From contig CAVSNY010000007.1 in assembly GCA_963729605.1 (NCBI GenBank), positions 768,001 through 832,000 of the forward strand: DNA of 64,000 nucleotides, written 5' to 3'. How positions within the stretch are numbered: position 1 is the stretch's first letter; every line of letters starts with the position of its first letter. This document shows positions 1,188 to 16,868 of the stretch, in pieces. Made by a program: the position numbers and the translations under genes. The notes under the pieces are model-generated. The model ran no database searches and was not told the DNA's origin. It saw only the letters and a list, made by a program, of their open reading frames with translations. The DNA comes from an uncultured Gammaproteobacteria bacterium (GTDB taxonomy: Bacteria; Pseudomonadota; Gammaproteobacteria; DRLM01).

Positions 1188-1366
1188 ATTGGGGCAGTGC
1201 GGGCGAGTTCTTCGCCATGGGCGGTTACGCCTTTTACGTATGGGGTTCCTTTGGGGTCGCCGCCTTGTTTTTATTGGTGGAGGTGATCATGGTCAGGCGC
1301 CGTAAGCGAACTATTATCCAGCGCCTGGGTCGTAGGAGGCGGATGCAAGCAGAGGTGAAACAATAA
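1184..1366 (+). CDS. ccmD: Heme exporter protein CcmD
   Basis: 60 aa, FFAMGGYAFYVW motif, single TM and basic tail; lies between ccmC and ccmE. Confidence 0.93.
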   Translation: MNWGSAGEFFAMGGYAFYVWGSFGVAALFLLVEVIMVRRRKRTIIQRLGRRRRMQAEVKQ

Positions 1367-1842
1367 TGAAGCCCAGACATAAGCGGCTGGCATTTATTTT
1401 GGTAGGGCTAGCGGGCCTGGGGGTGGCGGCGACTTTGGTATTGAACGCCTTGAAGAGCAACCTGCAATTGTTTTATAGCCCCAGCGAGTTAGTGGCGGGC
1501 GCCGCGCCCAAAGAGCGCACTTTCCGCCTGGGCGGTTTGGTGGAAGAGGGAAGCATCAAACGGGAAAATGACGGGCTCACGGTGAATTTCGTGCTGACCG
1601 ACCGCGCCGAAAACGTCAATGTGATTTTCAAGGGGATATTGCCTGATCTCTTCAAAGAGGGGGAAGGCGCGGTGGCCTTGGGTAAGATCAACGATGACGG
1701 GGTGTTCATGGCGGAGGAAGTGCTGGCCAAGCACGACGAAACCTATATGCCGCCGGAAGTGGCCCAGGCCTTGGAGCAAGCGAAAAAAGCTCAGCCGGCG
1801 ACCGCGGTGCCTATCAATACCAATGGGGGGAGGGACATCTAA
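1366..1842 (+). CDS. ccmE: Heme chaperone CcmE
   Basis: LPDLFKEG and VLAKHDETYMPPEV (heme-binding His). Confidence 0.97.
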   Translation: MKPRHKRLAFILVGLAGLGVAATLVLNALKSNLQLFYSPSELVAGAAPKERTFRLGGLVEEGSIKRENDGLTVNFVLTDRAENVNVIFKGILPDLFKEGEGAVALGKINDDGVFMAEEVLAKHDETYMPPEVAQALEQAKKAQPATAVPINTNGGRDI

Positions 1843-3902
1843 TGGTGCCGGAGATTGGACATTTCGCGCTGATTATCGCTTTATGCATGGCCTTGGTGCA
1901 GGGCAGTTTGCCGATCATCGGCGCCGCGCGCGGAATACCGCGCTGGATGGCCTTGGCCCGGCCGTTGGCGCAAGGCATGTTCGTCTTTGTCGCCGTCGCC
2001 TTCGCCTGTCTCACCTATTCGTTTATTCAAAATGATTTCTCCGTGCTCTATGTGGCGTCGCACTCTAATTCGGCTCTGCCGCTGCAATACCGTATCGCCG
2101 GCGTATGGGGCGGTCATGAAGGTTCCCTGTTGCTGTGGATTTTGATGCTGACCGGCTGGATGCTGGCGGTCAGTATGTTCAGCCGTCATTTGCCCGATGA
2201 AATGGCGGCCCGGGTATTGGGCGTAATGGGCCTGGTGACGGTCGGTTTCCTGGCCTTTACGCTGTTCACCTCCAATCCCTTCGCCCGTTTGTTGCCCGCC
2301 GCGCTCGACGGCCGGGATTTGAATCCGCTGCTGCAAGACTTCGGTTTGATCATCCATCCGCCGATGTTGTACATGGGTTATGTCGGTTTCTCGGTGGCCT
2401 TCGCCTTCGCCATCGCCGCGTTGCTGGGCGGCAGGCTCGACGCCACCTGGGCGCGCTGGTCGCGCCCGTGGACCACGGTGGCCTGGATGTTCCTCACCAT
2501 CGGTATCGCGCTCGGCAGCTGGTGGGCCTATTACGAATTGGGCTGGGGCGGCTGGTGGTTCTGGGACCCGGTCGAGAACGCCTCGTTCATGCCTTGGTTG
2601 GTCGGCACGGCGCTGATCCATTCGCTCGCCGTCACCGAAAAACGCGGCAGCTTCAAGAGCTGGACCGTGCTGCTGGCGATCACGGCGTTTTCGCTGAGCC
2701 TGCTCGGCACCTTCCTCGTCCGATCGGGTGTGTTGACCTCGGTGCATTCCTTCGCCAACGACCCCGAGCGCGGCATGTTCATCCTGATTTTCCTGGTGAT
2801 CGTAGTCGGCGGTTCCCTGGCGCTGTTCGCATGGCGCGCGCCCAAGGTCGGTTTGGGCGGGCGTTTCGAGATGTTGTCGCGCGAGACCATGCTGCTCGCC
2901 AATAACGTGCTGTTCGTGGTCGCCGCCGGCACGGTGTTGATCGGCACCTTGGCGCCGCTGGTGGTGGACGCCATGGCCTCGCTCGGCGTCATCGCGCCGA
3001 CCAATAAGATCTCGGTGGGGGCGCCGTATTTCGACGCGGTATTTATTCCCATCATGGCCGCCGTGGTGTTTTTCATGGGGGTGGGGCCGGTCGCCAAATG
3101 GAAACAAACCACCGTGCCCGAGCTGGGACGGCGGATACGCTGGGCCGCGGCGGTCGCGATCGTCATGGCGATCATTACGCCTTTCGTGATGGGGCACTGG
3201 TCGTGGCTGGTCAGCCTGGGCGCGTTGATGGCCTTCTGGATCGTCGCCACCGTGCTGCTGAGTCTGCGCGACCGCTTGAGCCGGACCCCCGGCGACAAGC
3301 CGTGGCCGGTGCGCCTGGTGAATCTGCCCACCAGTTACCTCGGCATGCAGCTCGCGCATTTCGGGGTGGCGGTGTTCATCCTCGGTGTGATGGGGGTGAG
3401 CGGTTACGAGGAAGGCAAAGACGTGCGCATGGAGATCGGCGATACGGTCGAAGTGTCGGGCTATACCTTCCGTTTCGACGGCGTGATCAATGCCAAAGGC
3501 GCGAACTACGAGGCGCAACGCGGTCTGATCACGGTATTCAAGGGTGAGAAGCCGCTGATGCAGCTCCATCCCGAGAAGCGGGTCTATCGCGTGCAAAAAG
3601 ATGTCATGACCGAAGCGGCTATCGACAGCGGCTTTTTCCGCCACTTGTTCGTGGCGCTGGGTGAGCCGGTGGGCAACGGCGCCTGGAGCGTCCGGGTTTA
3701 TTACAAACCCTTGATCAACTGGATCTGGGGCGGCTGCGGCTTGATGGCCTTGGGCGGCTTGCTCGCGATCAGCGACCGCCGCTACCGCGCCTTGGCGCGC
3801 AAGCAGCGTCAGATGGCCGAGGCGGGCGAAGGGGAAGGCGACGCCTCCGATGCACCGGCCCCGGCCGGCGGTTTCTTGCGCGGTTCGGAGGTGAAGTCCT
3901 GA
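1842..3902 (+). CDS. ccmF: Cytochrome c synthetase CcmF
   Basis: WGGHEGS, HPPMLYMGY, WGGWWFWDPVENAS, SVHSFA. Confidence 0.98.
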   Translation: MVPEIGHFALIIALCMALVQGSLPIIGAARGIPRWMALARPLAQGMFVFVAVAFACLTYSFIQNDFSVLYVASHSNSALPLQYRIAGVWGGHEGSLLLWILMLTGWMLAVSMFSRHLPDEMAARVLGVMGLVTVGFLAFTLFTSNPFARLLPAALDGRDLNPLLQDFGLIIHPPMLYMGYVGFSVAFAFAIAALLGGRLDATWARWSRPWTTVAWMFLTIGIALGSWWAYYELGWGGWWFWDPVENASFMPWLVGTALIHSLAVTEKRGSFKSWTVLLAITAFSLSLLGTFLVRSGVLTSVHSFANDPERGMFILIFLVIVVGGSLALFAWRAPKVGLGGRFEMLSRETMLLANNVLFVVAAGTVLIGTLAPLVVDAMASLGVIAPTNKISVGAPYFDAVFIPIMAAVVFFMGVGPVAKWKQTTVPELGRRIRWAAAVAIVMAIITPFVMGHWSWLVSLGALMAFWIVATVLLSLRDRLSRTPGDKPWPVRLVNLPTSYLGMQLAHFGVAVFILGVMGVSGYEEGKDVRMEIGDTVEVSGYTFRFDGVINAKGANYEAQRGLITVFKGEKPLMQLHPEKRVYRVQKDVMTEAAIDSGFFRHLFVALGEPVGNGAWSVRVYYKPLINWIWGGCGLMALGGLLAISDRRYRALARKQRQMAEAGEGEGDASDAPAPAGGFLRGSEVKS

Positions 3903-4426
3903 TGGGTCGGTTTCTAATCCCCCTCGGGGTGTTCGGTTTGTTGGCGGTGTTCCTATTTATCGGGCTCAGTCTCAAGCCCAGTGAGATCCCTTCGCCCTTG
4001 CTCGATAAAGCGGCGCCGGCGTTCGCGTTGCCGCAATTGCATGAACCGGACGAAAACTTCACGCCCGCCGATCTGCGCGGCCAGGTCTGGCTGTTCAACG
4101 TGTGGGCTTCTTGGTGTGTGTCCTGCCGCGACGAGCACCCGTTGTTGTTGGATCTCGCGCGTACGGGCGAGGTGCCGATCTACGGCCTCAATTACAAGGA
4201 TCAACGCCAGGACGCCGTGCGCTGGCTGCAACAGCTCGGCAATCCCTATATCGCGAGCGCCTACGACCTCGAGGGCCAAGTGGGGATCGATTACGGGGTC
4301 TATGGCGTGCCGGAAACCTACGTGATCGATCGCGAAGGGGTGATCCGCCACAAACACATCGGTCCCATTACGCTGAAAGTTTTGACCGATGAAATTCTCC
4401 CCATCGTAAGGAAGCTCAAAGGATGA
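3902..4426 (+). CDS. ccmG: Thiol:disulfide interchange protein CcmG/DsbE
   Basis: WASWCVSC thioredoxin motif, GVYGVPET; position in operon. Confidence 0.95.
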   Translation: MGRFLIPLGVFGLLAVFLFIGLSLKPSEIPSPLLDKAAPAFALPQLHEPDENFTPADLRGQVWLFNVWASWCVSCRDEHPLLLDLARTGEVPIYGLNYKDQRQDAVRWLQQLGNPYIASAYDLEGQVGIDYGVYGVPETYVIDREGVIRHKHIGPITLKVLTDEILPIVRKLKG

Positions 4427-4905
4427 AGCGGCTGGTATTGGTTTGGCTGCTGCTGGTCGGCGGCATGACGGCGGGTGTGGCCGCGGCCAAAGAAGCGGTG
4501 CCGGTGATGGGCGACGCCGTCATGCAGGCGCGGGTGATGAAACTCTCCGCCGAATTGCGCTGCCTGGTGTGCCAGGGGCAATCCTTGGCGGATTCCCACT
4601 CCGATTTCGCCATCGACATGCGCAACAAGATCATGGCGCTCATGAATGAGGGGATGAGCGATCGGGAAGTGAAAGCGTATCTGGTCGATCGCTACGGCGA
4701 ATTCATTTTGTATAAACCGCCCTTCTCCGGCATTACCACCATGGTGTGGCTGGGTCCGCTGGCGTTGTTCGCCATAGGCTCGGGGATATTGTTCTTCAAC
4801 CTCAAGCGGCGGCGTAAGACCGTGGCCGAGGCCACCTTGTCGCCGGAAGAACTGAATCGGGTACACAGCCTGTTAAATAAAGAGCCAGGGGATAAACACG
4901 CATGA
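4423..4905 (+). CDS. ccmH: Cytochrome c biogenesis protein CcmH (CcmL)
   Basis: LRCLVCQGQS motif, RYGEFILYKP. Confidence 0.95.
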   Translation: MKRLVLVWLLLVGGMTAGVAAAKEAVPVMGDAVMQARVMKLSAELRCLVCQGQSLADSHSDFAIDMRNKIMALMNEGMSDREVKAYLVDRYGEFILYKPPFSGITTMVWLGPLALFAIGSGILFFNLKRRRKTVAEATLSPEELNRVHSLLNKEPGDKHA

Positions 4906-6146
4906 TGATTTTTTCCGTGGTCGCGGCGCTGTTGCTTGCCGCGGCGTTGTTGTTCATCGTCCCTTCGTTATGGCGCCGGCACGGCCGTCAAGGCGTGCAA
5001 CGCGACCGTTCCAATCTGGAAATATACAAGGATCAGCTCGCCGAGCTGGAGGTCGATCTCAACGCCGGTACCTTGAGTCAAGAACAATTCGAGCATGGCC
5101 GGTTGGAGTTGGAGCGGCGTTTATTGGACGATGTCGCGCAGCAGCCCGCGCCGCCGGTGGTCGACGATAAAGACGCGGGACGCGGCGCGGCGGTGAGCCT
5201 GGCTTTGTTCGTCCCCCTGCTCGCGGTGTTGATCTATCTCATTCAGGGTGCGCCCGATGGCATTTCGCCGGAAAAGACGGCAGCCATGGTTGCGGGAAAT
5301 GGCGAACAACCCAGCCATGAAATCACCATGGACCAAATCCAGAACATGGTGGCGAAGCTGGCCGAACGCATGGAAACCAATCCCAACGATATCGAAGGCT
5401 GGTTGATGTTGGGCCGCTCCTATAGCGCCTTGGGACGTTACGCCGAGGCCGGCGCCGCGCTGGAAAGAGCGGTGGCCTTGCAGCCGGATAACGCCGACCT
5501 GCTGGTGGATTACGCCGACGTGCTCGCCATGGCCAGCGGTGAAACCCTGGAAGGCAAACCCGCCGAGTTGATCGCGCGGGCCTTGAGTCTCGATCCCAAT
5601 AATCAAAAGGGCTTGTGGCTTGCGGGGACCGCGGCCTTCGATCGGGGTGATTACAACCGCGCCATCGGTTATTGGGAACACTTGCTGGGGCAATTGCCGC
5701 CCGGTTCGCAAGAGGCCCAGGCCATGATCAATAATATCGCCGAGGCCCGCGCTCAGCGTGGGCAAGGCGGACCGGCGACGGCCGCCACGCCGGCGGCGGA
5801 ACAGATGGAGATCCAGGGTACCGTGCGCCTCAAACCGGAACTGGCGGGACGCGCCGCGCCCACCGATACGGTGTTCGTGTTCGCCCGCGCCGTGCAGGGG
5901 CCGCGCATGCCGCTGGCCATCCTGCGGGTGCAGGTCAAGGATCTGCCGCTGCAATTCAATTTGAACGATTCCCAGGCCGTGACGCCGATGGCGCGTTTGT
6001 CCGGTTATACCGAGGTGGCGGTGGGCGCCCGCATCTCCAAGAGCGGCAACGCCATGCCGGAGAGCGGCGACTTGGAAGGCATCGTCAATGCCGTGCAGGT
6101 GGGCAGCAGCGGCATCAACGTGATGATCGATACGGTCGTGCCTTGA
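4902..6146 (+). CDS. ccmI: Cytochrome c biogenesis protein CcmI (TPR plus C-terminal Ig-like domain)
   Basis: N-terminal TM, IYKDQLAEL, TPR repeats (GWLMLGRSY), GPRMPLA/ARISKSG C-terminal domain. Confidence 0.93.
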   Translation: MMIFSVVAALLLAAALLFIVPSLWRRHGRQGVQRDRSNLEIYKDQLAELEVDLNAGTLSQEQFEHGRLELERRLLDDVAQQPAPPVVDDKDAGRGAAVSLALFVPLLAVLIYLIQGAPDGISPEKTAAMVAGNGEQPSHEITMDQIQNMVAKLAERMETNPNDIEGWLMLGRSYSALGRYAEAGAALERAVALQPDNADLLVDYADVLAMASGETLEGKPAELIARALSLDPNNQKGLWLAGTAAFDRGDYNRAIGYWEHLLGQLPPGSQEAQAMINNIAEARAQRGQGGPATAATPAAEQMEIQGTVRLKPELAGRAAPTDTVFVFARAVQGPRMPLAILRVQVKDLPLQFNLNDSQAVTPMARLSGYTEVAVGARISKSGNAMPESGDLEGIVNAVQVGSSGINVMIDTVVP

Positions 6147-6213: not shown

Positions 6214-6340
6214 ACCACGGAGGGCGCGGAGTTCTCGGAGAAAAAAATCGGGGACTTCACGCTTGGATCGAACCCGCTCGACGGGGGAGTTCGCCCAATG
6301 CCCATTCTGACGTTCCGCGTCCTCCGTGATTTCCGTGGTT
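6214..6340. repeat. Intergenic inverted repeat built from periodic (A)CGGAG units (REP-like)
   Basis: ACCACGGAGGGCGCGGAGTTCTCGGAG (6214-6240) is an imperfect reverse complement of TTCCGCGTCCTCCGTGATTTCCGTGGT (6313-6339). Confidence 0.6.
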
Positions 6341-6359
6341 GGTATCCGCGGTTTTTAGG

Positions 6360-6920
6360 ATGAAGGGGATGAAGACCCGCCAGTGGGTTACGGGCTTGCT
6401 GGTCGTCTTGTTGATCGCGGGCTGCGGCAAGGCGGCGGCGCCGACCGATAAAATGATACTCGGCGAGCCTTTTCCATCCCTCCAGGTGACGACTCTGGAT
6501 GGTGAGGTGTTGCCCCTGACGGCGGCGCGCGGCAAGCTGGTGGTGCTGAATATCTGGGCGACTTGGTGCGGCCCCTGCCGGAAAGAACTGCCGAGTCTGC
6601 AGCGTTTGAGCCAGGCCTTGGATGCGCGGCGTTTCGAGGTGCTGGGCGTGGCCCTCGACGAAGACGCGCATATCGTGCGCGAGTACCTCATCGATAAGGG
6701 CGTGATCTATCCCAATTGGTTGGACCCGGCCTTCAAGGTGGCGGATGACGTGCTGGGCATCACCGCCTATCCCTACACCTTTTTCATCAGCCCCGAGGGC
6801 CGCTTGTTGGGCCGGGTGGTCGGCATCGCGGAATGGGACGATCCCAAAGTGATCCAGGCCTTGGAAGCGGCGTATCGCGGCGATACCTCCGGCTTGGCCG
6901 GTTTGTCCCGTCATTCGTGA
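6360..6920 (+). CDS. TlpA/ResA-family thiol-disulfide oxidoreductase, probable lipoprotein
   Basis: WATWCGPC motif; lipobox LIAGC; start at ATG 6360 or 6369. Confidence 0.88.
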   Translation: MKGMKTRQWVTGLLVVLLIAGCGKAAAPTDKMILGEPFPSLQVTTLDGEVLPLTAARGKLVVLNIWATWCGPCRKELPSLQRLSQALDARRFEVLGVALDEDAHIVREYLIDKGVIYPNWLDPAFKVADDVLGITAYPYTFFISPEGRLLGRVVGIAEWDDPKVIQALEAAYRGDTSGLAGLSRHS

Positions 6921-7044
6921 ATTGGCGCGATACCGCCGACACGCCGCGCTGTTGTACGGTACCGTCTTCTCAGTCCCGGCGCCGCTTGTTACTATTGCGC
7001 ACCGCCGCGGTGCTCACTGGGACAATAACCTTGAGGATGACACT

Positions 7045-7377
7045 ATGAACACCTTGTTTCGCAGCACACGCCGCAGCGCGATCGCGGCCATGGCGATCGC
7101 CTTGTGCATCGGCGGATGGACCGGTGTCGCGCAGGCGGCGGATCCCAAGAACGGCGCCACCTTGTATAACCAACATTGCGTCAACTGCCATGGCCAGCGC
7201 GGCGTGCCGGTGATGCCCGGCGTGCCCGACTTCTCCCGCCGCGAACGGCTGATGCAATCGGACCTGGATTTGATCAAGGCCATTTCCCGCGGCAAAGGCA
7301 TGATGCCCGCTTATCAAGGCCTGCTCAGTGAAAACGACATCCTGGATGTCATCTCCCATTTAAGAAACCTGCGGTGA
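7045..7377 (+). CDS. Small monoheme class I cytochrome c (c6/c553-like)
   Basis: GAGG RBS, signal peptide ending AQA, CVNCH, distal Met in GKGMMPAY. Confidence 0.9.
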   Translation: MNTLFRSTRRSAIAAMAIALCIGGWTGVAQAADPKNGATLYNQHCVNCHGQRGVPVMPGVPDFSRRERLMQSDLDLIKAISRGKGMMPAYQGLLSENDILDVISHLRNLR

Positions 7378-8504
7378 AGATCGGTTTCGGCATGCGCTGG
7401 GCCTTGGCCGCGCTGAGCGTGTTGCTCAGCGGCGGTTGCAGTTCCTCGGAAAAGGGCGGCGAATTTTCCGCGAAATCCGCCCTCGCCAACCGCGTCCCGC
7501 TCGCGGTGTTGGAATCGTTCGGGGTGGGCGACGACGTCTACGTCCGTTCCCTCGCCGTCGATCGCGCCGCCAACAGTGTGTGGGTCGGCACCTCGGTCGG
7601 GGTGCATGAAGTCGATTTGACCAGCCGCGATCCGCGCCAGACCTTCACCCGCAAGGAAGGCCTCGCCAACGAATACGTGTTCGCGATCCTGGTGGATGGC
7701 CAGGGCAATAAATGGTTCGGCACCAACGGCGGCGGGGTGTCCCGTTACCGCGACGGCCAATGGCAGACTTATTTTCCCATGCACGGCCTGGCCGATTACT
7801 GGGTGTACTCCTTCGCCGAGCAGCCGGGCGGCACCTTGTGGATCGGCACCTGGGCCGGCGTCAACCGTTTGGACACGGCGGACGGCAAGTTCACCACCTA
7901 CGTCAAAGAGCTGGTCAACGAATGGGTGTATGGCGCCGCGGTGGACGCCCGGCAGCGGGTGTGGTTCGGTACCGAGGGCGGCGTGTCGATGTTCGACGGC
8001 AAGGAGTGGCGGAGCTGGACTCATGCCGACGGGCTGGGCGCGCCCAACACCGACAATCTCCCCATCAGCCTGAACACCGGGCTCGGCACCCGTTCCCGGC
8101 ACGACTTGAACGTGCTGGCGGAGGGCGAGCCCAGCTACAACCCCAATTACGTCTTTTCGATGAAAGTGGCGGCGGACAACGCCGTATGGGCCGGCACCTG
8201 GGGCGGCGGGGTCGGCCGCTACGACGGCAAGGCCTGGAAAAATTACACCACTCAGGACGGCTTGGCGGGTAATATCGTCTTCAGCATCGCCCAGGCGCCG
8301 GACGGCGCGATGTGGTTCGGCACCAATCAGGGCGTGTCCCGTTTCGACGGTAAACACTGGCAGACCTTGCGGCGCGGCGACGGTTTGTTCGCCGACAGCG
8401 TTTACGCGGTGGCGGTGGCCCCAAACGGCGAGGCTTGGGTGGGCACCCGGCGCGGGGTGTCGCGCATCGGTCCCGCCAGCGCTAAAGAGGTAATCGACAA
8501 GTGA
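7374..8504 (+). CDS. Beta-propeller lipoprotein (two-component regulator propeller-type repeats)
   Basis: Lipobox LSGGC; repeated blades GL..xVxxI..D..G.xW(F/I)GT.GG. Confidence 0.8.
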   Translation: MKIGFGMRWALAALSVLLSGGCSSSEKGGEFSAKSALANRVPLAVLESFGVGDDVYVRSLAVDRAANSVWVGTSVGVHEVDLTSRDPRQTFTRKEGLANEYVFAILVDGQGNKWFGTNGGGVSRYRDGQWQTYFPMHGLADYWVYSFAEQPGGTLWIGTWAGVNRLDTADGKFTTYVKELVNEWVYGAAVDARQRVWFGTEGGVSMFDGKEWRSWTHADGLGAPNTDNLPISLNTGLGTRSRHDLNVLAEGEPSYNPNYVFSMKVAADNAVWAGTWGGGVGRYDGKAWKNYTTQDGLAGNIVFSIAQAPDGAMWFGTNQGVSRFDGKHWQTLRRGDGLFADSVYAVAVAPNGEAWVGTRRGVSRIGPASAKEVIDK

Positions 8505-9727
8505 AGATCGGTGTTACGGGAATCGCGATCGGCCTGATCGCCGTAAGCGGCGCGCTGGTGGCGGCCTATCAATTCGGCACTCAGCGCCAGTCAGACGGTT
8601 TGAATGCCGGCGCGGCGGGTTTGGCGCAGCGTGCCGCCGCGCCCGGCGGTGTCATGCCGGCCAATCACCCCGCGACGGCGGGCGTCGGCGGATCCGTCGG
8701 CGACAATAAATTCGCCCACTTCCGGGTCGGCAACCGCAATGTGAAGAGTATTTACGCCGACGGCGGCGTGGTGTGGATCGGCACCTCGGGCGGGGTGATC
8801 CGCTATGATGTCGCGACGGATAAACACCAGCTGTTCGACAATCAACTGACCGGCCTGCTCTCCAACGGGATATTTCATGTCAGCCGGGTCGGCCGACGAA
8901 TGGTGGTGGGCACTTACGGCGGTGGTCTGTCGGTGTTCGATCCGGCCAAGGACGCCTGGCGCAACTACAATATCCCCGACGGTTTGGCCGACCAGTTCGT
9001 CTACGACGTGCAGCAGGTGCGCAACGGTGATGTGTGGATCGCCACCTGGTCCGGCGTCAACCGGGTGCGCGGCGGGGCCTTCGAAGATCCCAGCCAATGG
9101 GAAACCTTTACCGTTGAGAACACCGGCGGCGGTCTGCCCAATCCCTGGGTCTATGCCCTGGACGAAGGCAAGAACGGCGAGATGTGGTTCGCCACGGAAT
9201 ACGGCCTGGCCCGCTACCAGAACGGCAAGTGGGACCATTGGCAACACGCCGACGGTTTGGGCGCGCCCTACGAGCAGGTCAAAGAGGCCATCCAATTCAC
9301 CAGCGATCCCGGCCAGTCGTCGTCCCACCACGCCCAGCAGAAAGTCGAGCAGGGCTTGCAGGACGTCAACGTGGCCTATAATCCCAATTACATCATCTCC
9401 CTGGCGGTGACCGACGATGGAGTCGTGTGGTGCGGTACCTGGGGCGGCGGCTTGGCCCGTTTCGACGGCAAAACCTGGCGTAACTTCACCACCCAAGACG
9501 GCCTCCCCGCCAATCACATTTTCATGTTGTACAAGGGACCGGACGGCCAGTTGTGGGCCGGTACCAGCCGGGGTTTGGCGCGGCTCAATACGGACGGCAA
9601 GGGATTTACGGTGCTGACGACCCGTGACGGATTGTTCGCGGATAATGTCTTTTCCATGGCCCATGCCCAGGACGGCAGTGTATGGGTAGGGAGTTTTGGC
9701 GGCGTGGCCCGGCTCAACGGCTTATAG
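8501..9727 (+). CDS. Second beta-propeller protein, N-terminally anchored or exported
   Basis: N-terminal hydrophobic segment; same blade repeats as upstream paralog. Confidence 0.8.
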   Translation: MKIGVTGIAIGLIAVSGALVAAYQFGTQRQSDGLNAGAAGLAQRAAAPGGVMPANHPATAGVGGSVGDNKFAHFRVGNRNVKSIYADGGVVWIGTSGGVIRYDVATDKHQLFDNQLTGLLSNGIFHVSRVGRRMVVGTYGGGLSVFDPAKDAWRNYNIPDGLADQFVYDVQQVRNGDVWIATWSGVNRVRGGAFEDPSQWETFTVENTGGGLPNPWVYALDEGKNGEMWFATEYGLARYQNGKWDHWQHADGLGAPYEQVKEAIQFTSDPGQSSSHHAQQKVEQGLQDVNVAYNPNYIISLAVTDDGVVWCGTWGGGLARFDGKTWRNFTTQDGLPANHIFMLYKGPDGQLWAGTSRGLARLNTDGKGFTVLTTRDGLFADNVFSMAHAQDGSVWVGSFGGVARLNGL

Positions 9728-9964
9728 CGTCTCATCTCTCTGCCTGAGCGACGCTAGCCTGGGGTTTTTCCTGGGTTTTTAGTCCAGTTCCGCGAAATGC
9801 TGCCGATAACCCTGTGGGGCTTATACCGGCCCCGCAGAGAGACATATGCCACAAACACTGGGTGTGTATCATCATTTTTCCGCTCCGAATGCGGCTTGTT
9901 CTCGTCCTTTGCGAAGCCGGGGTAAGCAGGTATTTGTCGGCTTGCCGGCGACCGGGATGCGGTC

Positions 9965-12436
9965 ATGAGGAGTCTCGGTACCCGCTTGGCCCTGGTGATC
10001 TCGGCGGTGTTGTCGCTGCTGGTCTTGTTCGCCGGCATGTGGCTGGAGCGGCAAGTCACCGAGACCATGCGCGCCGAAGAGGTGCGCCAGGCCAAATTGC
10101 ACGCCGGTACCTTGCTGGGCAGTTTGCAGACCTTGATGCTGAACGGCCAGGGCACGCTGGCCCGTTCCTGGCTGGACCGCATGCACGGTGAAGCCGGCAT
10201 CGTAGATATCGAGGTGCTGCGCCGGGACGGCGTGGAGGCCTTCACCGATTTGTCCACGGTGAAGGCCGTGAATGAGTATCTGGGCTACCCGCGTTTTCAG
10301 CGGGAACCTTCACTATCCCGCCATGGCCCTGACGTCAACAAGCCCGCCTTCAAACAGGCCTTGCAGGGCGAGTTGTCGGTGGATTGGGCCACGCCCGGCC
10401 AGATGTCTTTATACATGCCCATCGAGAGGCGCGGGGAATGTATCGCCTGTCATGGTTATGAAGATGATCCCATGCGCGGCGTCTTGAAGCTGGCCTTGTC
10501 CACCGTGGCGGCGGAAAACCGCATCGACGCCATGCGTCATCGGGTGTGGGTGATGTCCGCCGGCCTGGTGTTGCTGCTGGGCGTGGCGATGTGGGTGGCC
10601 TTGCGGGTCAGCGTGCTGGGGCCGATCGCCCATTTGCGCGATGCGATCAAACGGGTGGGCGAAGGCGACCGCGACGCCAAGCTGCCGGTCGGACGCCGCG
10701 ATGAGGTAGGCGAGGTGTCCGAGGTCTTCAACCGCATGCAGGACCAGTTGGTGGCAAGCGAGGTGCGGATCCGCGCCGTCATGGACAACGTGCTGGACGC
10801 CATCATCACCTTCGATGGAAAAGGTACGATCGAGTCGGCCAATCAGGCGGTGCGCAATGTGTTCGCATGCAGTCCCGAGGAACTGCTCGGCCAGAATCTC
10901 AAGATGTTGATGCCGGAACCTTACCGCGGCGAATACGAGCGCTTTCTGGCCCATTACATCGAAAGCGGCGAGCCGCGCATCCTCGGCGTGGGCCGCGAGG
11001 TGATGGGCCAGCGCAAGGGCGGCGGCATCTTCCCCATGGATTTGGCGGTGAGCGAGATGTGGGTGCACGGCCGGCGTTATTTCATCGGCATCATCCGCGA
11101 CATCACCGAACGCAAAGAGCAGATGGCGGCCATCGAATATCAGGCACTGCACGACGCCTTGACCGATTTGCCCAATCGCTCCCTGCTCTCCGATCGCCTG
11201 CACCAGGCGATCCTCAACGCGATCCGCGACAAGACGCCCCTGGCCTTGATCATCATGGATCTCGACCACTTCAAAGAGATCAACGATACCCTCGGCCATC
11301 ACAACGGCGACTTGATTTTGAAACAGGTGGCGACCCGGGTGCGCGGCGTGTTGCGTGAATCGGACACCGTGGCCCGCCTCGGCGGCGACGAGTTCGCGGT
11401 GCTGTTGCCCACCGCGGATTTGATCGACGCCACCCGCATCGCCAAGAAAATTCTGAGCGCCCTCGACCAGCCCTTCGATCTGGAAGGACAGTCCTTCCAC
11501 GTCGGCGGCAGCCTGGGCATCGCGCTGCTGCCCGAACACGGCCGCGACGGCACGGCGCTGATGAAGCGCGCCGACGTCGCGATGTACGAGGCCAAGCGCG
11601 GCAAGACCGGTTTCGCTTTATACGATCCTTCCAAGGATCAACACAGCCTGCGCAATCTGTCCTTGATGGGCGATTTGCGCTCCGCCATCGAACAAAACCA
11701 GTTGGTGCTTTACTATCAACCCAAGGTCAATATGCAGACCGGGCGGGTCAGCGGCGTGGAGGCCCTGGTACGCTGGCAACACCCGCAACATGGCTTGATG
11801 TATCCCGACGACTTCATCCCGCTCGCCGAGCAGGCGGGTTTGATCCGCCAGGTGACCTTGTGGGTGTTGGAAAAGGCCCTGGCCCAACACACCGATTGGT
11901 TGCAGATGGGTATCGACTTGAGCATGGCGGTGAACCTGTCGGCGCGTAACCTGCAGGACAATGTCTTCCCCGACGAGGTGGGCGCCCTGCTGCGCGGTTA
12001 TCACCATACGCAATTGTCGCGACTGCGTTTCGAGATCACCGAAACCGCGATGATGGCCGACCCCGGCCGCGCGGCGGAGATACTCAACGCCCTCGGCGCC
12101 ATGGGTATCCGGTTGTCGATCGACGATTTCGGCACCGGCTATTCCTCCTTGGCGTACCTCAAGCAATTGCCGGTGGCGGAATTGAAGATCGACAAGTCCT
12201 TCGTGCTGGGCATGAGCACCGACGACAACGACGCGGTGATCGTGCGTTCCACCATCGACCTCGCCCATAACATCGGCATGCGGGTGGTGGCGGAAGGTGT
12301 CGAGGATAAAAAGACCTACGACATGTTGGCCACGCTGGGTTGCGACGTGGTGCAGGGTTATTTCATCAGCCGGCCGGTGACGCCCGAGGAATTATTGCGC
12401 TGGTTGCAGAATCCGCCCTGGGGCCTGCAGGTATAA
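9965..12436 (+). CDS. Membrane c-di-GMP enzyme: periplasmic CxxCH sensor-HAMP-PAS-GGDEF-EAL
   Basis: Two TMs flanking a region with CIACH; HAMP (RRDEVGEV); PAS; RESD I-site plus GGDEF; EAL plus DDFGTGYSSL. Confidence 0.93.
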   Translation: MRSLGTRLALVISAVLSLLVLFAGMWLERQVTETMRAEEVRQAKLHAGTLLGSLQTLMLNGQGTLARSWLDRMHGEAGIVDIEVLRRDGVEAFTDLSTVKAVNEYLGYPRFQREPSLSRHGPDVNKPAFKQALQGELSVDWATPGQMSLYMPIERRGECIACHGYEDDPMRGVLKLALSTVAAENRIDAMRHRVWVMSAGLVLLLGVAMWVALRVSVLGPIAHLRDAIKRVGEGDRDAKLPVGRRDEVGEVSEVFNRMQDQLVASEVRIRAVMDNVLDAIITFDGKGTIESANQAVRNVFACSPEELLGQNLKMLMPEPYRGEYERFLAHYIESGEPRILGVGREVMGQRKGGGIFPMDLAVSEMWVHGRRYFIGIIRDITERKEQMAAIEYQALHDALTDLPNRSLLSDRLHQAILNAIRDKTPLALIIMDLDHFKEINDTLGHHNGDLILKQVATRVRGVLRESDTVARLGGDEFAVLLPTADLIDATRIAKKILSALDQPFDLEGQSFHVGGSLGIALLPEHGRDGTALMKRADVAMYEAKRGKTGFALYDPSKDQHSLRNLSLMGDLRSAIEQNQLVLYYQPKVNMQTGRVSGVEALVRWQHPQHGLMYPDDFIPLAEQAGLIRQVTLWVLEKALAQHTDWLQMGIDLSMAVNLSARNLQDNVFPDEVGALLRGYHHTQLSRLRFEITETAMMADPGRAAEILNALGAMGIRLSIDDFGTGYSSLAYLKQLPVAELKIDKSFVLGMSTDDNDAVIVRSTIDLAHNIGMRVVAEGVEDKKTYDMLATLGCDVVQGYFISRPVTPEELLRWLQNPPWGLQV

Positions 12437-12673
12437 TCCCGGCGGGCGCCATTCCCGCTGCTCGCGGCGTAGAGATACAACAAGGGTTAACGAAGATTGC
12501 GCTATACGAGGCGATACCTCGTAGCGTGCGCCGCACGGAAAGGCGGCTTACGCGCGCACGGCGCACATTGTGGCTGGCGCCATTACTATAATCTCCCACC
12601 CGTGTGATTCTCCCTTTGATCTGGCGCGGGGAGAACGCAGCGAGGGTAGCTTCCCGTGCGCAGTCAGGCCCCT

Positions 12674-13816
12674 TTAACGCGCCGGCGCGGTCGGCGCCGT
12701 GGTTGCCCAATCGTCGGGCGCGCGGCGCACCGGCCGGAAGATATCGATCTTGCGAAAATATTGATCGGCTATATATACCCGCCCCGTTTCGTCCACCGCC
12801 ACCCCGGCTGGCAAATAAAATTTGCCCGGCTTGCTGCTCTCGTCCCGATTGCCGATGTGCATCAGGATCTGGCCTTGCGGGTTGAAGAGCTGGACATTGC
12901 CGAAGGCGGCGTCGGCCACGTAAATGGTACCTTCGGCGTCGGTGGCGATGCCTTTGGGTCGGGCGAATTGGCCGGGGAAACGCCCCACTTCGCCGAAGGC
13001 GAGGCGAAAACTCCCGTCGGCCGCGAAGCCCTGCACCCGGAAATTGCCGCCGTCCACCACGTACACGCTGCCGTCCGCGGCGGTGGCGGCCTGCAACGGC
13101 AGATTGAATTGGCCGTTGCCGGTGCCGCGGGTGCCGATGGTTTGCAGCAAGGCACCGCTGCGCGGATCGAGCACATGGACGTGATGCTGCTCGCTGTCCA
13201 CCCCGCCCACATCCACCACGTAAAGCCGCTGGCCGTCCGGGCTGAGGGCGACCCCCGAGGGCCGGCGCAGCTCGGCGTCGCTGCCGAGGACGCGGAGGTG
13301 CTTGCCGCCGGCGTCGTAGACCTGCACCCGCCGCGCGCTGACGTCGGCGACGTAGATTTCGTTATCGGGCGACAAGGTGATGCCGATGGGTTTTTGCAGC
13401 CGGCCCGGCTCGCTTTGGCCGAACTGGAGGAAGCGCTTGCCGGCGATGTCGAACAACAACACCGCGCTTTGCGCGGTGTCGGTGACGTAGACCCGCCCGC
13501 CGCGGGCGGCGACGCCGTAGGGTTTCACCAGGCCTTTGACTTCCTCGCCGCGGCCGGTGGCGAGTTCGCGCCAGCGGGCGAAGCCGCTCAACTGCTCGAC
13601 GTCTTCGTTGATGCGCAGGGTGCGTTCGTAGATGAAACGCGCCTCGTCGGGCGGCGGCGGATAGACGGGCGGTTCAAGCCGCGGGGCGGGCGGGGCGCTG
13701 GCGCAGCCGGTCAACAGGCCCAGCACGCATAACGCGACCAGACCCGGCTTTAGGGCGCCTCTAAAAACCCGCTGAAACCGCGATGGCGGTGTTGGAAACG
13801 TGCTCAAAATACTCAT
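12674..13816 (-). CDS. NHL-repeat six-bladed beta-propeller lipoprotein
   Basis: Lipobox LLTGC; repeats F..P.G(I/V)A.D..G.(I/V)YVAD; VYPPPPDEARF N-terminal motif; start uncertain because it lies inside a MITE. Confidence 0.85.
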   Translation of the reverse strand: MSILSTFPTPPSRFQRVFRGALKPGLVALCVLGLLTGCASAPPAPRLEPPVYPPPPDEARFIYERTLRINEDVEQLSGFARWRELATGRGEEVKGLVKPYGVAARGGRVYVTDTAQSAVLLFDIAGKRFLQFGQSEPGRLQKPIGITLSPDNEIYVADVSARRVQVYDAGGKHLRVLGSDAELRRPSGVALSPDGQRLYVVDVGGVDSEQHHVHVLDPRSGALLQTIGTRGTGNGQFNLPLQAATAADGSVYVVDGGNFRVQGFAADGSFRLAFGEVGRFPGQFARPKGIATDAEGTIYVADAAFGNVQLFNPQGQILMHIGNRDESSKPGKFYLPAGVAVDETGRVYIADQYFRKIDIFRPVRRAPDDWATTAPTAPAR

Positions 13817-13891
13817 GACTCCGTGTGCAGCGCGCTTTTTCGCCCATTTCCGCCTTGCCTTCGCGCCTTGATCGAATTTTTAGAGGCGCCC
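13753..13891. mobile_element. 139-bp MITE-like element
   Basis: Perfect 15-bp terminal inverted repeats GGGCGCCTCTAAAAA / TTTTTAGAGGCGCCC; TTTA direct repeat on both sides (13749-13752, 13892-13895). Confidence 0.75.
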
Positions 13892-13892
13892 T

Positions 13893-14690
13893 TTATTTGA
13901 TATGGCATGTTTCACACAGGCGATCGGCGCGGGTGCGCAGCAGGAGCGTCACGTCGGGATCGTGGACGTTGTGGCAGGTGGCGCACTCGACTTTGCCGTC
14001 ATAAAGTTTGATGCCGTTGTCGAAACCGTAGGGGCTGTCGGGCGTGCGAAAATCCTGGTCGTTGTTGTTGAGGCCGGCATAGGTCATCGAGATGGCGTGG
14101 TCGTTGGTGAGATCGGTGCCGATGTGTTTGATGGCGATGCTGTGCGCCACCCGGCCGTCATGGCATTTGCCGCAGCTCATTAAATCGTTGCCGCCGTTGA
14201 GGCGCAAATGCAGCGCCGCGTCCTCGCTGCTCTGCCAGCCGTCGGGTTTGAACACCGTCATGTCCACGCCCATGGTGCCGTCGTGGCAGGACAGGCACAG
14301 CAGGCTGATCGGGCTGGGCGTGCGCACCTTGTTGTCGAGGGTGCGGGTATCGTAGATGTCATAGGCGCCGGTGGCGGGGACGAAACGATTCCAGCCCGGA
14401 ATGCCGCCTTGTCCGGCGCTGTCCTGCTCGGGCCGTTCGGGGGGCAGATGGCAATAGACGCAGGAGTTGCCGTAATCGGAGAAGGCCACTCCGGGCATGG
14501 CCACCACGCCGGCGCGCTGGTTGAGTCCGGTGAAGTCGTGTTTGGTGCCGAGCAGGGTGCCGGCCAGGGCATTCGCGCCGAGCAGCAGCGCGGCGATGAT
14601 GGCCGCGGCGCCGGCGATACGGGTGGCTGACGAGGCGCGCTCATGCGAACGCATCGGTGCGGGTGCGCTGTGCTGTGCTGGGCGTGTCAC
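13893..14690 (-). CDS. Pentaheme cytochrome c
   Basis: Five CxxCH motifs (CVYCH, CLSCH, CGKCH, CATCH, CETCH); signal peptide ending ALA; alternative ATG start at 14654. Confidence 0.88.
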   Translation of the reverse strand: MTRPAQHSAPAPMRSHERASSATRIAGAAAIIAALLLGANALAGTLLGTKHDFTGLNQRAGVVAMPGVAFSDYGNSCVYCHLPPERPEQDSAGQGGIPGWNRFVPATGAYDIYDTRTLDNKVRTPSPISLLCLSCHDGTMGVDMTVFKPDGWQSSEDAALHLRLNGGNDLMSCGKCHDGRVAHSIAIKHIGTDLTNDHAISMTYAGLNNNDQDFRTPDSPYGFDNGIKLYDGKVECATCHNVHDPDVTLLLRTRADRLCETCHIK

Positions 14691-14877
14691 TGCGTGCAGA
14701 ACCTTTCCGCTTGATTTTGGCCGGGAACGGCAGTCTAGTTATGACTGGTCCAAGAGTAGCGCAATTCATTTATTTGCGCCACAATGATGCCCGCCCCGGA
14801 GAATATATGCCCGCCGCTGCGGCGGTCCGGGTCATATGCGAATGTCTTAACCCAGCGGAACATCCGACAGCCTCACG

Positions 14878-15924
14878 ATGACTATGCGCGCCGCGGCCTT
14901 CGCCGCCCTTACAGTCTTGACCGTGCTGATCGCCACCCCGGCCTCCGCCGCGGTGGACGGCGCGGCGGTGTACGTCGAGCATTGCCAGGTCTGCCACGGC
15001 GACAAAGGCGACGGCAATACCCGCGTGCGGCGGGGTTTGACGCCGCCGCCGCGCGACTTCACCAGCGCGCGGGCGCGCCAGGAGTTGAGCCGCGAGCGCA
15101 TGATCAATTCGATTGCCCACGGCCGGCCCGGCACCGCCATGGTGGGATTCGGTCAGCGCCTGTCGGAAGAGGAGATCGCCGCGGTGGCCGATCACATCCG
15201 CGCCAGTTTCATGACCGCCCGTGACGGCAAGGCCGAGCCCCGTCCTGCCAAACTGGTGTTGGGCGAACAATTGTACGTGCGCAATTGCGCCGTGTGTCAC
15301 GGCGACAAGGGCAGTGGCGCGATGTGGACCCAGTCGAGCCTCAACCCGGCGCCGCGGGACTTCACCTCGCCGGCGACCCGCGAGGAATTGAGCCGCGAGC
15401 GGATGATCAACTCGGTGACCTTCGGCCGGCCCGGTACGGCGATGATGTCCTTCAGCAAACGGCTTTCTCCCGCCGAGATCGAGACGGTGGTCGACTATGT
15501 GCGCGCCACCTTCTTTTTGAAGGAGCCCGCCCTGCCGCCCGAGCACGCGCAGCGGGTCCAGGCCGACATGGCGCAGCCCTTTCCCAACGGTTTGCGCGGC
15601 GACGCCGCTTGGGGACGGGAGTTTTACGAACACAATTGTTTCACCTGCCACGGCAAGGAAGGCGACGGCAAAGGGCCGCGCTCGAAATTCATCAATCCCA
15701 AGCCGCGTAATTTCCTCGAAACCGATTCACGCGCGCGGTTGAACCGGCCCGCCCTGTTCGACGCGGTGCGCGACGGGCTGCGCGGCACGGTGATGCCGGC
15801 CTGGGGCAAGGTGCTCAGCGAACAGGAGATCGCCAACGTGGCGGAATATGTGTTCACCGCCTTCGTCCATCCGGCCGCCGCCTCCGCCCCCCCGGCGGAT
15901 AAAAAAAAACTGAACGCCCCGTAG
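14878..15924 (+). CDS. Triheme cytochrome c of three tandem class I domains; N-terminal part of a frameshifted gene
   Basis: Signal peptide; CQVCH, CAVCH, CFTCH, each followed by PxPR(D/N)F and G..GT.M. Confidence 0.9.
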   Translation: MTMRAAAFAALTVLTVLIATPASAAVDGAAVYVEHCQVCHGDKGDGNTRVRRGLTPPPRDFTSARARQELSRERMINSIAHGRPGTAMVGFGQRLSEEEIAAVADHIRASFMTARDGKAEPRPAKLVLGEQLYVRNCAVCHGDKGSGAMWTQSSLNPAPRDFTSPATREELSRERMINSVTFGRPGTAMMSFSKRLSPAEIETVVDYVRATFFLKEPALPPEHAQRVQADMAQPFPNGLRGDAAWGREFYEHNCFTCHGKEGDGKGPRSKFINPKPRNFLETDSRARLNRPALFDAVRDGLRGTVMPAWGKVLSEQEIANVAEYVFTAFVHPAAASAPPADKKKLNAP

Positions 15925-16868
15925 CCGCCAGCGCCGCGCAAATCGCCCGCGGCAAGCAGGTCTATAACGAACGCTGTTATTTCTGTCACGGCTACAACGG
16001 CGACGCCAAGACCTTGGCCGCCAGCTATCTGTCACCTCCGCCGCGGGATTTCACCAAGAGCGATCCCGCCAGGCTGAGCCGGGAAAAAATGATCGCCGCC
16101 GTACGCGACGGCCGGCCCGGCACGGCCATGAAAAGTTTCTCGACGCTGTTGAACGAGCAGGATATCGCCGCCGTGGTGGACTTCGTCCGTGCCACCTTCA
16201 TCGACCAGCGCGGTATCAACACTTATTACCATACCGTTGAAAACGGCTGGCCCGATCATCAACGCTACGCGGCGGCCTTTCCGTTCGCCTTGGGCGAGAT
16301 CGCGCTGGACACGCCGTGGGAGGAATTGACCCCGGCCCAGCAGGCGGGCAAACGTTTGTTCATGTCGAGTTGCATCAGTTGCCACGACCGGGCGCGGGTC
16401 AACGACGAAGGCGTGGTGTGGGACCCGCGCTCGGTGTCGTTTCCGCGCGGGGGCTACCGGCATGATGTCGAGCAGGATAAAAAAGTGGACGCGGTGAGCG
16501 GGGCGACACCCTACGCCAAACACGATAAGCCGCCCAAGCTGGAAAAGGCCACGGCGCAGGAGCGGCGCGGCGAACAGTTGTTTCAGGCCAATTGCGCGTT
16601 CTGTCACGCCGCGGACGGCACGGCGCGCAATTGGATCGGACGGTTTCTCGAGCCCCATCCCCGCGACCTCACCGACGCCGCGGCCATGAAGGGGATGGGG
16701 CGGGCGGAAATCAAAGAGGCGATCCGCGAGGGTGTGCCGGGCACGCCGATGTCGGCGTGGAAGCATGTGCTGCCGGATCAGGACATCGACGCCATCGTCG
16801 CCTATATCGTTCGGGTCTTTCATCCGCTGCCGGCGGTTCCCGATCGGCCTCCCGCCCCCCGGCCTTGA
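15903..16868 (+). CDS. Cytochrome c continuation in the -1 frame with three more hemes and no own start or signal peptide
   Basis: Frame is open from 15903 and reads KKTERPVAASAAQIARGKQVYNERCYFCHG. CYFCH lies upstream of the first start codon (TTG 16014). Further CISCH and CAFCH follow. Confidence 0.85.
   Translation, partial: KKTERPVAASAAQIARGKQVYNERCYFCHGYNGDAKTLAASYLSPPPRDFTKSDPARLSREKMIAAVRDGRPGTAMKSFSTLLNEQDIAAVVDFVRATFIDQRGINTYYHTVENGWPDHQRYAAAFPFALGEIALDTPWEELTPAQQAGKRLFMSSCISCHDRARVNDEGVVWDPRSVSFPRGGYRHDVEQDKKVDAVSGATPYAKHDKPPKLEKATAQERRGEQLFQANCAFCHAADGTARNWIGRFLEPHPRDLTDAAAMKGMGRAEIKEAIREGVPGTPMSAWKHVLPDQDIDAIVAYIVRVFHPLPAVPDRPPAPRP

Follow-up and report, generated by a model that had tools for sequence, protein, structure and literature searches.

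Directly behind the cytochrome c maturation (ccm) operon of an uncultured gammaproteobacterium (GTDB lineage Bacteria; Pseudomonadota; Gammaproteobacteria; DRLM01) lies a block of nine reading frames that encodes cytochromes, beta-propellers and an enzyme of cyclic di-GMP (c-di-GMP) metabolism, and which is the subject of this analysis. The block is contained in a stretch of 64,000 nucleotides, the window (GenBank assembly GCA_963729605.1, contig CAVSNY010000007.1, positions 768,001 to 832,000 of the forward strand), to which all positions without a contig label refer. As judged by comparison with related loci, the block is a composite of three co-travelling modules, a sensor, an OmcE-like pair and a recoded cytochrome, and not the single dedicated module proposed in a preliminary description of the sequence, as some two thirds of the sampled loci have the cytochrome-propeller trio but not the c-di-GMP enzyme. 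In the recoded cytochrome, two triheme frames meet out of frame at a run of nine adenines (A9), a state that recurs throughout its relatives. We give even chances to the reading that the block would be a periplasmic redox-sensing and electron-relay system with a c-di-GMP output, in which slippage on the A9 run would set the ratio of a three-heme to a six-heme cytochrome.

The genes that had been listed behind ccmI in the preliminary description are all present (open reading frame list, Pfam and NCBIfam; Table 1), its count of 13 CxxCH heme motifs is borne out (1+1+5+3+3), and, as it had noted, none of the nine products has a match to a molybdenum, copper or flavin enzyme, porin or quinol oxidoreductase family in Pfam or NCBIfam. 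Two of its points had to be amended. The NHL-repeat lipoprotein and the five-heme cytochrome (pentaheme) are both encoded by minus-strand genes that diverge from the triheme gene, and the block is therefore not one co-directional operon; and the six heme motifs of the 3+3-heme cytochrome are not in a single open reading frame but in two frames that meet at the A9 run, 15901-15909.

Related loci were gathered in three ways, i.e., by peptide-pattern scans, by whole-genome searches in the order and class of the host, and by fetching flanks. The full gene set in the order of the window was found in 20 of the 69 unique related loci with long flanks, and the ccm genes (the ccmC-ccmI set) are kept upstream of the module in most related loci; the loci for these and all later synteny counts were selected by likeness to the first propeller (prop1), and the fractions describe its family, not a random sample. 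Given this recurring gene order, the arrangement of the block is far beyond chance. The possibility, raised at the outset, that the homologs would prove to be scattered was examined by gene-neighbourhood search, and their co-location was found to be strongly conserved.

The cytochrome-propeller trio and its transducers

The trio consists of a small monoheme cytochrome, prop1 and a second propeller, prop2, which is 41% identical to prop1. The genes are tightly packed, with 4-nucleotide overlaps between the start of prop1 and the stop of the cytochrome, and again between the start of prop2 and the stop of prop1. In a set of 120 unique loci, prop1 was followed by prop2 in every case that could be scored (113/113), and the small cytochrome was directly upstream of prop1 in 105 of 115. 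As for the surrounding genes, ccmI was located within 7 kb upstream of the trio in 60 of 86 loci, a TlpA-like gene within 6 kb upstream in 50 of 91, and an NHL gene within 10 kb of prop1 in 32 of 82. Orthologs of prop1 (E 1e-80 or better; 58-93% identical) are present in 40 of 401 genomes sampled evenly from the class and, at a looser threshold of E 1e-60, in 10 of the 12 genomes of the window's own order, and the peptide-pattern scan confirmed prop1 relatives at 579 or more species-level loci. The trio carriers among the matches listed include Ramlibacter, Ideonella, Piscinibacter, Hydrogenophaga, Rhodoferax and Rubrivivax, as well as Dechloromonas, Aromatoleum, metagenome-assembled genomes (MAGs) of Gallionella, Tepidiphilus, Pelomicrobium and Thiohalobacter; Ramlibacter, Dechloromonas, Hydrogenophaga and Aromatoleum are among those with cultured representatives. 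A proteobacterial trio, 64-70% identical to that of the window, was also seen on three contigs labelled as Anaerolineales, Litorilinea and Chitinophaga pinensis MAGs (L005, L114 and L173, respectively), which are probably mis-binned.

Both propellers match the Pfam family PF07494 (Reg_prop) at E 1e-24, and the PDB sequence matches of prop1, 3V9F and 4A2L, are sensors of hybrid two-component systems (HTCS). A model of prop2 (predicted local distance difference test, pLDDT, 85) starts with a membrane helix, continues through a disordered linker and ends in a seven-blade propeller that bears a helical insert, and its best folds are BT4663 (E 3e-18), BT3049 and BT4673. By their likeness in sequence and predicted fold to these Bacteroides HTCS sensors, the propellers are of the sensor type, and nothing indicates the catalytic role that had been suggested for them. 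Each propeller has an insert with residues that are invariant in the alignment, Arg240, Arg242 and His243 in prop1 (insert at residues ~222-258) and His276-His277 in prop2 (~250-297), and these conserved inserts could be a site for a ligand, a heme or a partner. The inserts of both propellers end in Tyr-Asn-Pro-Asn-Tyr. When the two propellers and the small cytochrome were put through complex prediction together with heme, the score was 0.00, which is uninformative either way.

In 31 of 94 loci, as in the window, the gene directly after prop2 encodes a GGDEF-EAL enzyme. The window enzyme is composed of a transmembrane segment, a predicted periplasmic c-heme PAS-like domain (CIACH), a second transmembrane segment, and HAMP, PAS, GGDEF (E 3e-48) and EAL (E 6e-79) domains, the last two with their motifs intact in the translation (RESD...GGDEF, with its RxxD site, EAL, DDFGTGYSS and KIDKSF). 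For the periplasmic sensor domain, Pfam (E up to 10) and PDB sequence searches returned nothing useful. A model of the domain based on 35 orthologs (pLDDT 86) had 3B42 (E 4e-6) and 3B47 as its best PDB folds, which occupied ranks 1, 2 and 6, and C159, C162, H163 and M58 are invariant in the 35 orthologs. These best matches are the c-heme PAS sensors GSU0935/GSU0582, so that the CxxCH sensor of the preliminary description now has support at the level of the predicted fold.

A second architecture, in which a gap of ~4 kb separates the TlpA-like gene from the small cytochrome, was annotated by Pfam scans of the flanking genes in two Rhodocyclales loci, those of Aromatoleum toluvorans (L007:5924-8933) and Dechloromonas hankyongensis (L162:4246-8931). 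In both, the intervening genes encode a membrane histidine kinase and a sigma-54 response regulator, and tblastn revealed a similar gap in many Burkholderiales loci. The Dechloromonas locus also has a stand-alone Tll0287-like (PF11845) c-heme protein between ccmI and the TlpA-like gene. That a transducer adjoins the trio in both architectures was the main reason to take the trio for an input device.

The persistent linkage to ccm makes a role in maturation the strongest rival to this reading. The TlpA-like protein, the small cytochrome and the propellers would then not be sensors but maturation or quality-control accessories, such as holdases, a thiol relay or a means of heme delivery, for adjacent multiheme clients. 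The trio does stay beside ccm through rearrangements, as seen in the frequency of ccmI upstream of it and in Aromatoleum, whose ccm operon runs on the opposite strand, with a second ccmC-like gene upstream. An extra TlpA/ResA-type reductase accompanies the trio, its co-occurrence with a client-like cytochrome, the second triheme frame (tri2), is near-perfect (see below), and the omcE clusters of Desulfuromonadia (PMC13712944), as well as a second omcE-type cluster of the host genome with its ResB-like and CcsA-like genes, likewise adjoin or contain genes of heme maturation. Set against this are the facts that Reg_prop propellers are known only as ligand-sensing domains, that a signal transducer adjoins the trio in both architectures, and that, among the 71 loci with long flanks, ccm genes are missing from the nearest 10 kb in 17. 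We know of no cytochrome maturation system built from such parts, and while this rival is the one to be taken most seriously, we consider it unlikely.

Less probable again, in our estimation, is that the propellers are catalytic and constitute a new periplasmic redox enzyme, with electrons passing via the small cytochrome to the multiheme proteins. Their nearest relatives by sequence and fold are sensors, no cofactor-binding family, Cys or metal motif, or enzyme-family match over cut-off was found for them with Pfam and NCBIfam, and the lifestyles of the carriers, from Ramlibacter and Dechloromonas to Gallionella, Rubrivivax and Thiohalobacter, are diverse, with no common substrate. What lends the idea some substance is that the propellers are 58-78% identical across families, and so better conserved than ccmH or ccmI in the same loci, that the invariant Arg and His residues of the two inserts are available, and that enzymes are known among the seven-blade propellers of similar fold, such as virginiamycin B lyase (ranks 16-19 of the fold matches).

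The OmcE-like pair and the company it keeps

The pentaheme has PDB sequence matches over its whole length to 7TFS (E 7.7e-15; residues 32-265 against 11-232) and 9YUQ (E 9e-12), which are the OmcE filaments of G. sulfurreducens and D. soudanensis, respectively (PMC12954529, PMC13712944). OmcE is described as having four conserved CxxCH motifs and four further conserved heme-ligating His (PMC13712944). All four CxxCH positions are kept in the pentaheme, and its fifth motif, CGKCH, is inserted at a gap in OmcE. Five CxxCH and five other His are conserved in 27 pentaheme orthologs; three of the distal His align with those of OmcE (in KHD, NDH and VHD), and H161 and H183 are conserved besides. The NHL gene is directly downstream of the pentaheme gene on the same strand, an arrangement to be read beside the published minimal omcE clusters, which comprise two multiheme cytochromes, two beta-propeller lipoproteins, OmcE and a large beta-barrel, adjoin heme-maturation genes and have homologs in Pseudomonadota (PMC13712944). 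The preliminary description had allowed for a match to a characterised complex, and this came about in part: the pentaheme/NHL pair is a clear relative of the omcE cluster, but the barrel that defines such a cluster is lacking, and the block was therefore not filed as an omcE nanowire cluster.

The host genome does contain a second omcE-type cluster of canonical appearance (L182; C6:432001-446332, minus strand). Its products are a tetraheme OmcE-like protein of 272 amino acids (aa), two c7-type trihemes, an 11-heme cytochrome of 895 aa, a 622-aa protein of no family that is the candidate for the barrel, a 539-aa lipoprotein, an NHL lipoprotein, ResB-like and CcsA-like System II proteins and a TPR protein.

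The extent to which the modules share genomes was assessed in the class sample. Of the 40 prop1-positive genomes, 36 have the tri2 frame (E 1e-50 or better) and 29 the pentaheme (E 1e-40 or better), as against none and one, respectively, of the 360 prop1-negative genomes scored, contrasts that overstate independence, as the genomes are kin, and that are not a statistical proof. Three of the four genomes in which tri2 was missed (G036, G219, G278 and G351) are in 200-470 contigs and in the fourth the locus is at a contig end; the sole prop1-negative genome with a pentaheme (G245) has a protein of 47% identity. In several genomes, e.g., G222, G040, G354 and G387, the pentaheme and triheme genes share one contig and the trio is on another. 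On this comparison, the co-occurrence of the modules goes beyond inherited adjacency. A genome of the same genus, G003, was considered as a case of co-loss, as prop1, tri2 and the pentaheme are all missing from it, and was set aside: ccmI and ccmF are missing too, and with them the whole region from the assembly.

These data also bear on the notion that the three modules are unrelated neighbours, held together by descent and with no shared function. The trio is alone in 30 of the 69 loci with long flanks, and the succession of ccm, module and argC could be plain inheritance within related lineages. However, the modules share genomes even when they are on different contigs, and the order and orientation in which NHL/OmcE-like pairs and triheme genes adjoin the trio vary between loci (L010, L072, L086, L100, L152, L157 and L178), and we regard mere descent as a distinctly improbable explanation.

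The A9 junction of the two triheme frames

The zero-frame product of the first triheme frame (tri1) has the C-terminus Asp-Lys-Lys-Lys-Leu-Asn-Ala-Pro-stop, in which the Lys codons are the A9 run. The tri2 frame, which is -1 relative to tri1, begins within the run, and 24 codons separate this opening from its first heme motif, CYFCH. Between the run and this first CxxCH, the window tri2 has no ATG, GTG or TTG and no hydrophobic stretch; it would be expressed only as a fusion, with a predicted six-heme product of ~665 aa.

The generality of this arrangement was evident from a junction set of 29 unique loci that have both triheme halves adjacent on one strand. An A9 run is present at 25 of the junctions and an A10 run at three, and in all of these 28 loci tri2 is in the -1 frame; the remaining locus (L101) has a single in-frame open reading frame and no A run. 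The loci of the set have 43-93% protein identity to the window, and those with a genome assignment span at least nine GTDB families. An A_AAA_AAA heptamer is in phase in 28/28, and the zero-frame stop follows 1-12 codons past the run. Between the run and the first CxxCH is a linker of 21-56 residues, with no hydrophobic run longer than five residues and no signal peptide in any of the 28, and 15 of them have no possible start codon before the first CxxCH. Beyond it, the tri2 frame is complete in 27 (299-358 aa, three CxxCH), and the 28th runs off its locus. Substitutions relative to the window pile up at third positions (e.g., 15/22/68 by codon position in L001), a pattern which indicates that the tri2 frame is under purifying selection, with all of its heme motifs kept.

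The A9 run itself is genuine DNA, as contigs from three independent runs (wetland, groundwater and mud) span it without an insertion or deletion. A metatranscriptome, X19, covers only ~15473-15783, short of the run. The 3.48-Mb genome has three A/T runs of nine or more, against ~2.3 expected, and the other two A9 runs (C6:118045 and C7:67513) were inspected as candidate frame junctions and do not look like such. Thus one such run is within chance, homopolymers are error-prone and may vary in length during replication (PMC3711429), and some in-frame relatives retain Lys-Lys-Lys at the junction, but that the junction is unprogrammed, i.e., a sequencing or assembly error, a pseudogene or a DNA-level phase variation that switches the six-heme form, is very improbable, since errors would not recur and phase variation would leave some loci in frame, whereas 28 of 29 loci from many separate assemblies and at least nine families are all out of frame, the three runs agree on A9, and tri2 keeps its heme motifs under apparent selection.

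Two means of joining the frames were considered. In E. coli reporters, nine A's gave 40% frameshifting and seven gave 10% (PMC3711429). In the 60 nucleotides after the run, no RNA structure is conserved (mean z -0.33, with 1 of 28 below -2). Because 9-10 A's are conserved rather than seven, and no stimulator is conserved, slippage of the RNA polymerase is, from this comparison, somewhat more likely than a -1 shift of the ribosome.

In-frame counterparts of the proposed fusion exist in nature, with 13 six-heme proteins of 622-785 aa in the protein collection. At the other extreme, tri1 and tri2 are separate adjacent genes in four cultured relatives, Dechloromonas hankyongensis, Hydrogenophaga sp. 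RWCD_12, Ramlibacter monticola and R. lithotrophicus (L183-L186), in which tri2 carries a signal peptide or lipobox of its own and an A run is absent. The tri1 of R. monticola ends in Lys-Lys-Lys encoded by AAG AAG AAG, a possible precursor of the A9 run. In one GTDB family, f62, there is an A9 junction in L096 (genome G370) and an in-frame fusion with no A run in L101 (G244), and since both states are found within this family, the switch between them seems to be recent. Evolution thus offers separate genes, recoded fusion and in-frame fusion for comparison, and the three states argue for joint action of the halves and for a real six-heme product.

Gene inventory, proposed mechanism and known systems

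The features of the block and of the ccm operon before it are given in Table 1. The next gene after the block is argC, at 17104, and past it is an open reading frame of 242 aa (18201-18929, plus strand) which has no NCBIfam match and whose position is kept in several related loci (33-92% identity).

Table 1. Features of the block and of the adjoining ccm operon, in window coordinates.
Feature	Coordinates	Strand	Basis and remarks
ccmC, (ccmD), ccmE, ccmF, ccmG, ccmH, ccmI; System I cytochrome c maturation	441..6146	+	NCBIfam; over cut-off: ccmC, ccmE, ccmF/nrfE, dsbE, CcmI domain
TlpA/ResA-like periplasmic thiol:disulfide oxidoreductase, CGPC	6339..6920	+	Pfam AhpC-TSA/Redoxin; NCBIfam TlpA/ResA below equivalog cut-offs; probable lipoprotein (LIAGC lipobox read by eye)
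Monoheme class-I cytochrome c, CVNCH, conserved Met-Pro, Sec signal peptide	7045..7377	+	Pfam Cytochrome_CBB3/Cytochrom_C; 36-ortholog alignment; reading frame opens at 6922 and ends at 7377, likely start 7045
prop1, stand-alone Reg_prop seven-blade propeller 1, 376 aa	7374..8504	+	Pfam PF07494; probable lipoprotein
prop2, stand-alone Reg_prop propeller 2, 408 aa	8501..9727	+	Pfam PF07494; alignment; model
HAMP-PAS-GGDEF-EAL membrane c-di-GMP enzyme, periplasmic CIACH	9965..12436	+	Pfam, NCBIfam
NHL-repeat beta-propeller lipoprotein	12674..13816	-	Pfam NHL, 4 repeats, E 1e-30; LLTGC read by eye
Pentaheme, five-heme OmcE-family cytochrome	13893..14690	-	PDB sequence matches 7TFS, 9YUQ
tri1, triheme class-I cytochrome c, signal peptide, zero-frame product 348 aa	14878..15924	+	Three Cytochrome_CBB3 domains, three CxxCH
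A9 run, putative recoding site	15901..15909	+	Junction of the two triheme frames
tri2, second triheme frame, -1 frame, no signal peptide	15903..16868	+	Three CxxCH, the first (CYFCH) at 15975

The mechanism that we infer from the gene content, folds, homologies, conserved order and co-occurrence, and from the conservation of the A run and its frames, supposes binding among the parts, a direction of electron flow, a thing that is sensed and the production of both cytochrome sizes. The small His/Met cytochrome and the two membrane-tethered propellers would be made in fixed proportion from their overlapping genes, beside the TlpA-like thiol reductase, and would form a periplasmic receptor or input device that reports to the adjacent membrane transducer. 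In the window this would be the HAMP-PAS-GGDEF-EAL enzyme, whose c-heme PAS domain may read a redox state or a (gas) ligand state and so set the level of c-di-GMP, and in the annotated Rhodocyclales loci the trio would be paired with the histidine kinase and sigma-54 regulator instead. Together with its NHL partner, the bis-His, OmcE-like pentaheme would join the three- and six-heme class-I proteins of His/Met type in a periplasmic electron path with no barrel of its own, which perhaps links the barrel-containing cluster elsewhere in the genome (L182) to the inner membrane. Normal decoding would stop just past Lys-Lys-Lys and yield the three-heme protein, and a one-base slip on A9, either by addition of an A by RNA polymerase or by a -1 ribosomal shift on A_AAA_AAA, would yield the six-heme protein, so that the efficiency of the slip would fix the ratio of the two products.

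Several observations weigh against the block being such a system. The GGDEF-EAL gene was not found in 63 of the 94 trio loci sampled, and c-di-GMP output is therefore not intrinsic to the trio. In the second architecture, the kinase of Aromatoleum has no heme motif and, by BLASTP, no similarity to the window sensor domain beyond HAMP. The persistent linkage of trio and ccm, with 54 of 71 loci having a ccm gene no more than 10 kb away, fits a role in maturation as well. The His of CH-T-P-H that is found in both OmcE structures is missing from the pentaheme, and there is no outer-membrane barrel among the open reading frames between ccmI and argC, every one of which was assigned; for these two reasons nanowire-like behaviour is doubtful. 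The kinship of the genomes in the co-occurrence count and the choice of the synteny loci by their likeness to prop1 have been mentioned above and belong here too.

The mechanism can also be stated in a bolder form, which we advance as speculation and think unlikely to hold in full: the block would be a self-contained periplasmic "redox-stat" in which the cytochrome-double-propeller receptor and the c-heme PAS domain together measure the charge state of a dedicated wire made of the OmcE-like and six-heme proteins and convert it to c-di-GMP, with RNA polymerase slippage on A9 setting the composition of the wire.

The host is, as judged from its genes, an uncultured autotroph, with two RuBisCO large-subunit genes (C6:407914-408840 and C2:179971-180897). 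No SoxB, DsrA or NirS d1 domain was found over cut-off in its genome, and its electron donor is therefore not obvious. Contigs close to the window were assembled from wetland and groundwater runs, and the system may be relevant to electron uptake or disposal in such bacteria. If the proposed mechanism is true, sensor-type propellers tied to the redox chemistry of a cytochrome would be a new kind of periplasmic input device, while the five-heme OmcE relative, having no barrel, raises the question of what role cytochromes of the nanowire family have in the periplasm.

Comparison with known systems places each module close to a precedent and at some remove from it. The Bacteroides HTCS sensors (BT4663, BT3049 and BT4673) have the same repeat family, the same seven-blade fold and paired periplasmic propellers. 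In an HTCS chain, however, two propellers, a Y_Y_Y domain, a membrane helix and the kinase, receiver and DNA-binding output are joined, whereas the window has two separate genes, each for one propeller with its own membrane tether, and its proteins have no other domain, neither Y_Y_Y nor a cytoplasmic output. The window propellers also differ in being coupled to a cytochrome c and in having each a conserved insert. A literature search for Reg_prop propellers with cytochrome c or ccm found no paper that describes the trio.

For the sensor domain, the precedents are GSU0935 and GSU0582, which are Geobacter chemoreceptors with the same predicted plan, i.e., a PAS-like periplasmic fold with one CxxCH between two membrane helices, followed by HAMP. 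There is no detectable sequence similarity between them and the window domain, and the output of the window protein is GGDEF-EAL in place of a chemoreceptor. The Tll0287-like c-heme sensors have a representative in the Dechloromonas locus described above that shares its position and theme with the heme sensor of the window, but it has no sequence similarity to the window domain (BLASTP), and the window has no such protein.

The cluster closest to the second module is the Desulfuromonadia omcE cluster, with which the window shares a full-length OmcE homolog, a propeller lipoprotein, two further multiheme frames and adjoining maturation genes. The differences are that the pentaheme has five hemes to the four of OmcE and has lost the His after the first CxxCH, that a large outer-membrane barrel is not part of the window cluster, that the accompanying cytochromes are class-I His/Met proteins and not of the c7 type, and that maturation is by System I (ccm) and not by ResB/CcsB.

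Finally, the A9 junction has its counterparts among the poly-A slippage genes, such as the dnaX of Thermus thermophilus, with its slip at A9, the two-ORF (open reading frame) dnaX genes and insertion sequence transposases. A literature search for slippage or frameshifting in bacterial or multiheme cytochromes found none; the supplementary frameshift-cluster lists of PMC3711429 were outside this search and might contain the family. The main text of PMC3711429 does not have the word cytochrome, and the available part of a 2016 review (PMC5009743) uses it for mitochondrial genes only. If true, the A9 junction would be the first known recoding event in a respiratory c-type cytochrome, by which slippage gives two respiratory proteins from one gene, in a ratio that may be tunable by growth conditions. 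The window and the known slippage genes are alike in that a conserved run of 9-10 A's joins two frames to give a short and a long product. They differ in that the window junction has no conserved stimulatory RNA structure and in that the window gene encodes a periplasmic c-type cytochrome, in which the shifted product would be the longer one and would add three hemes.

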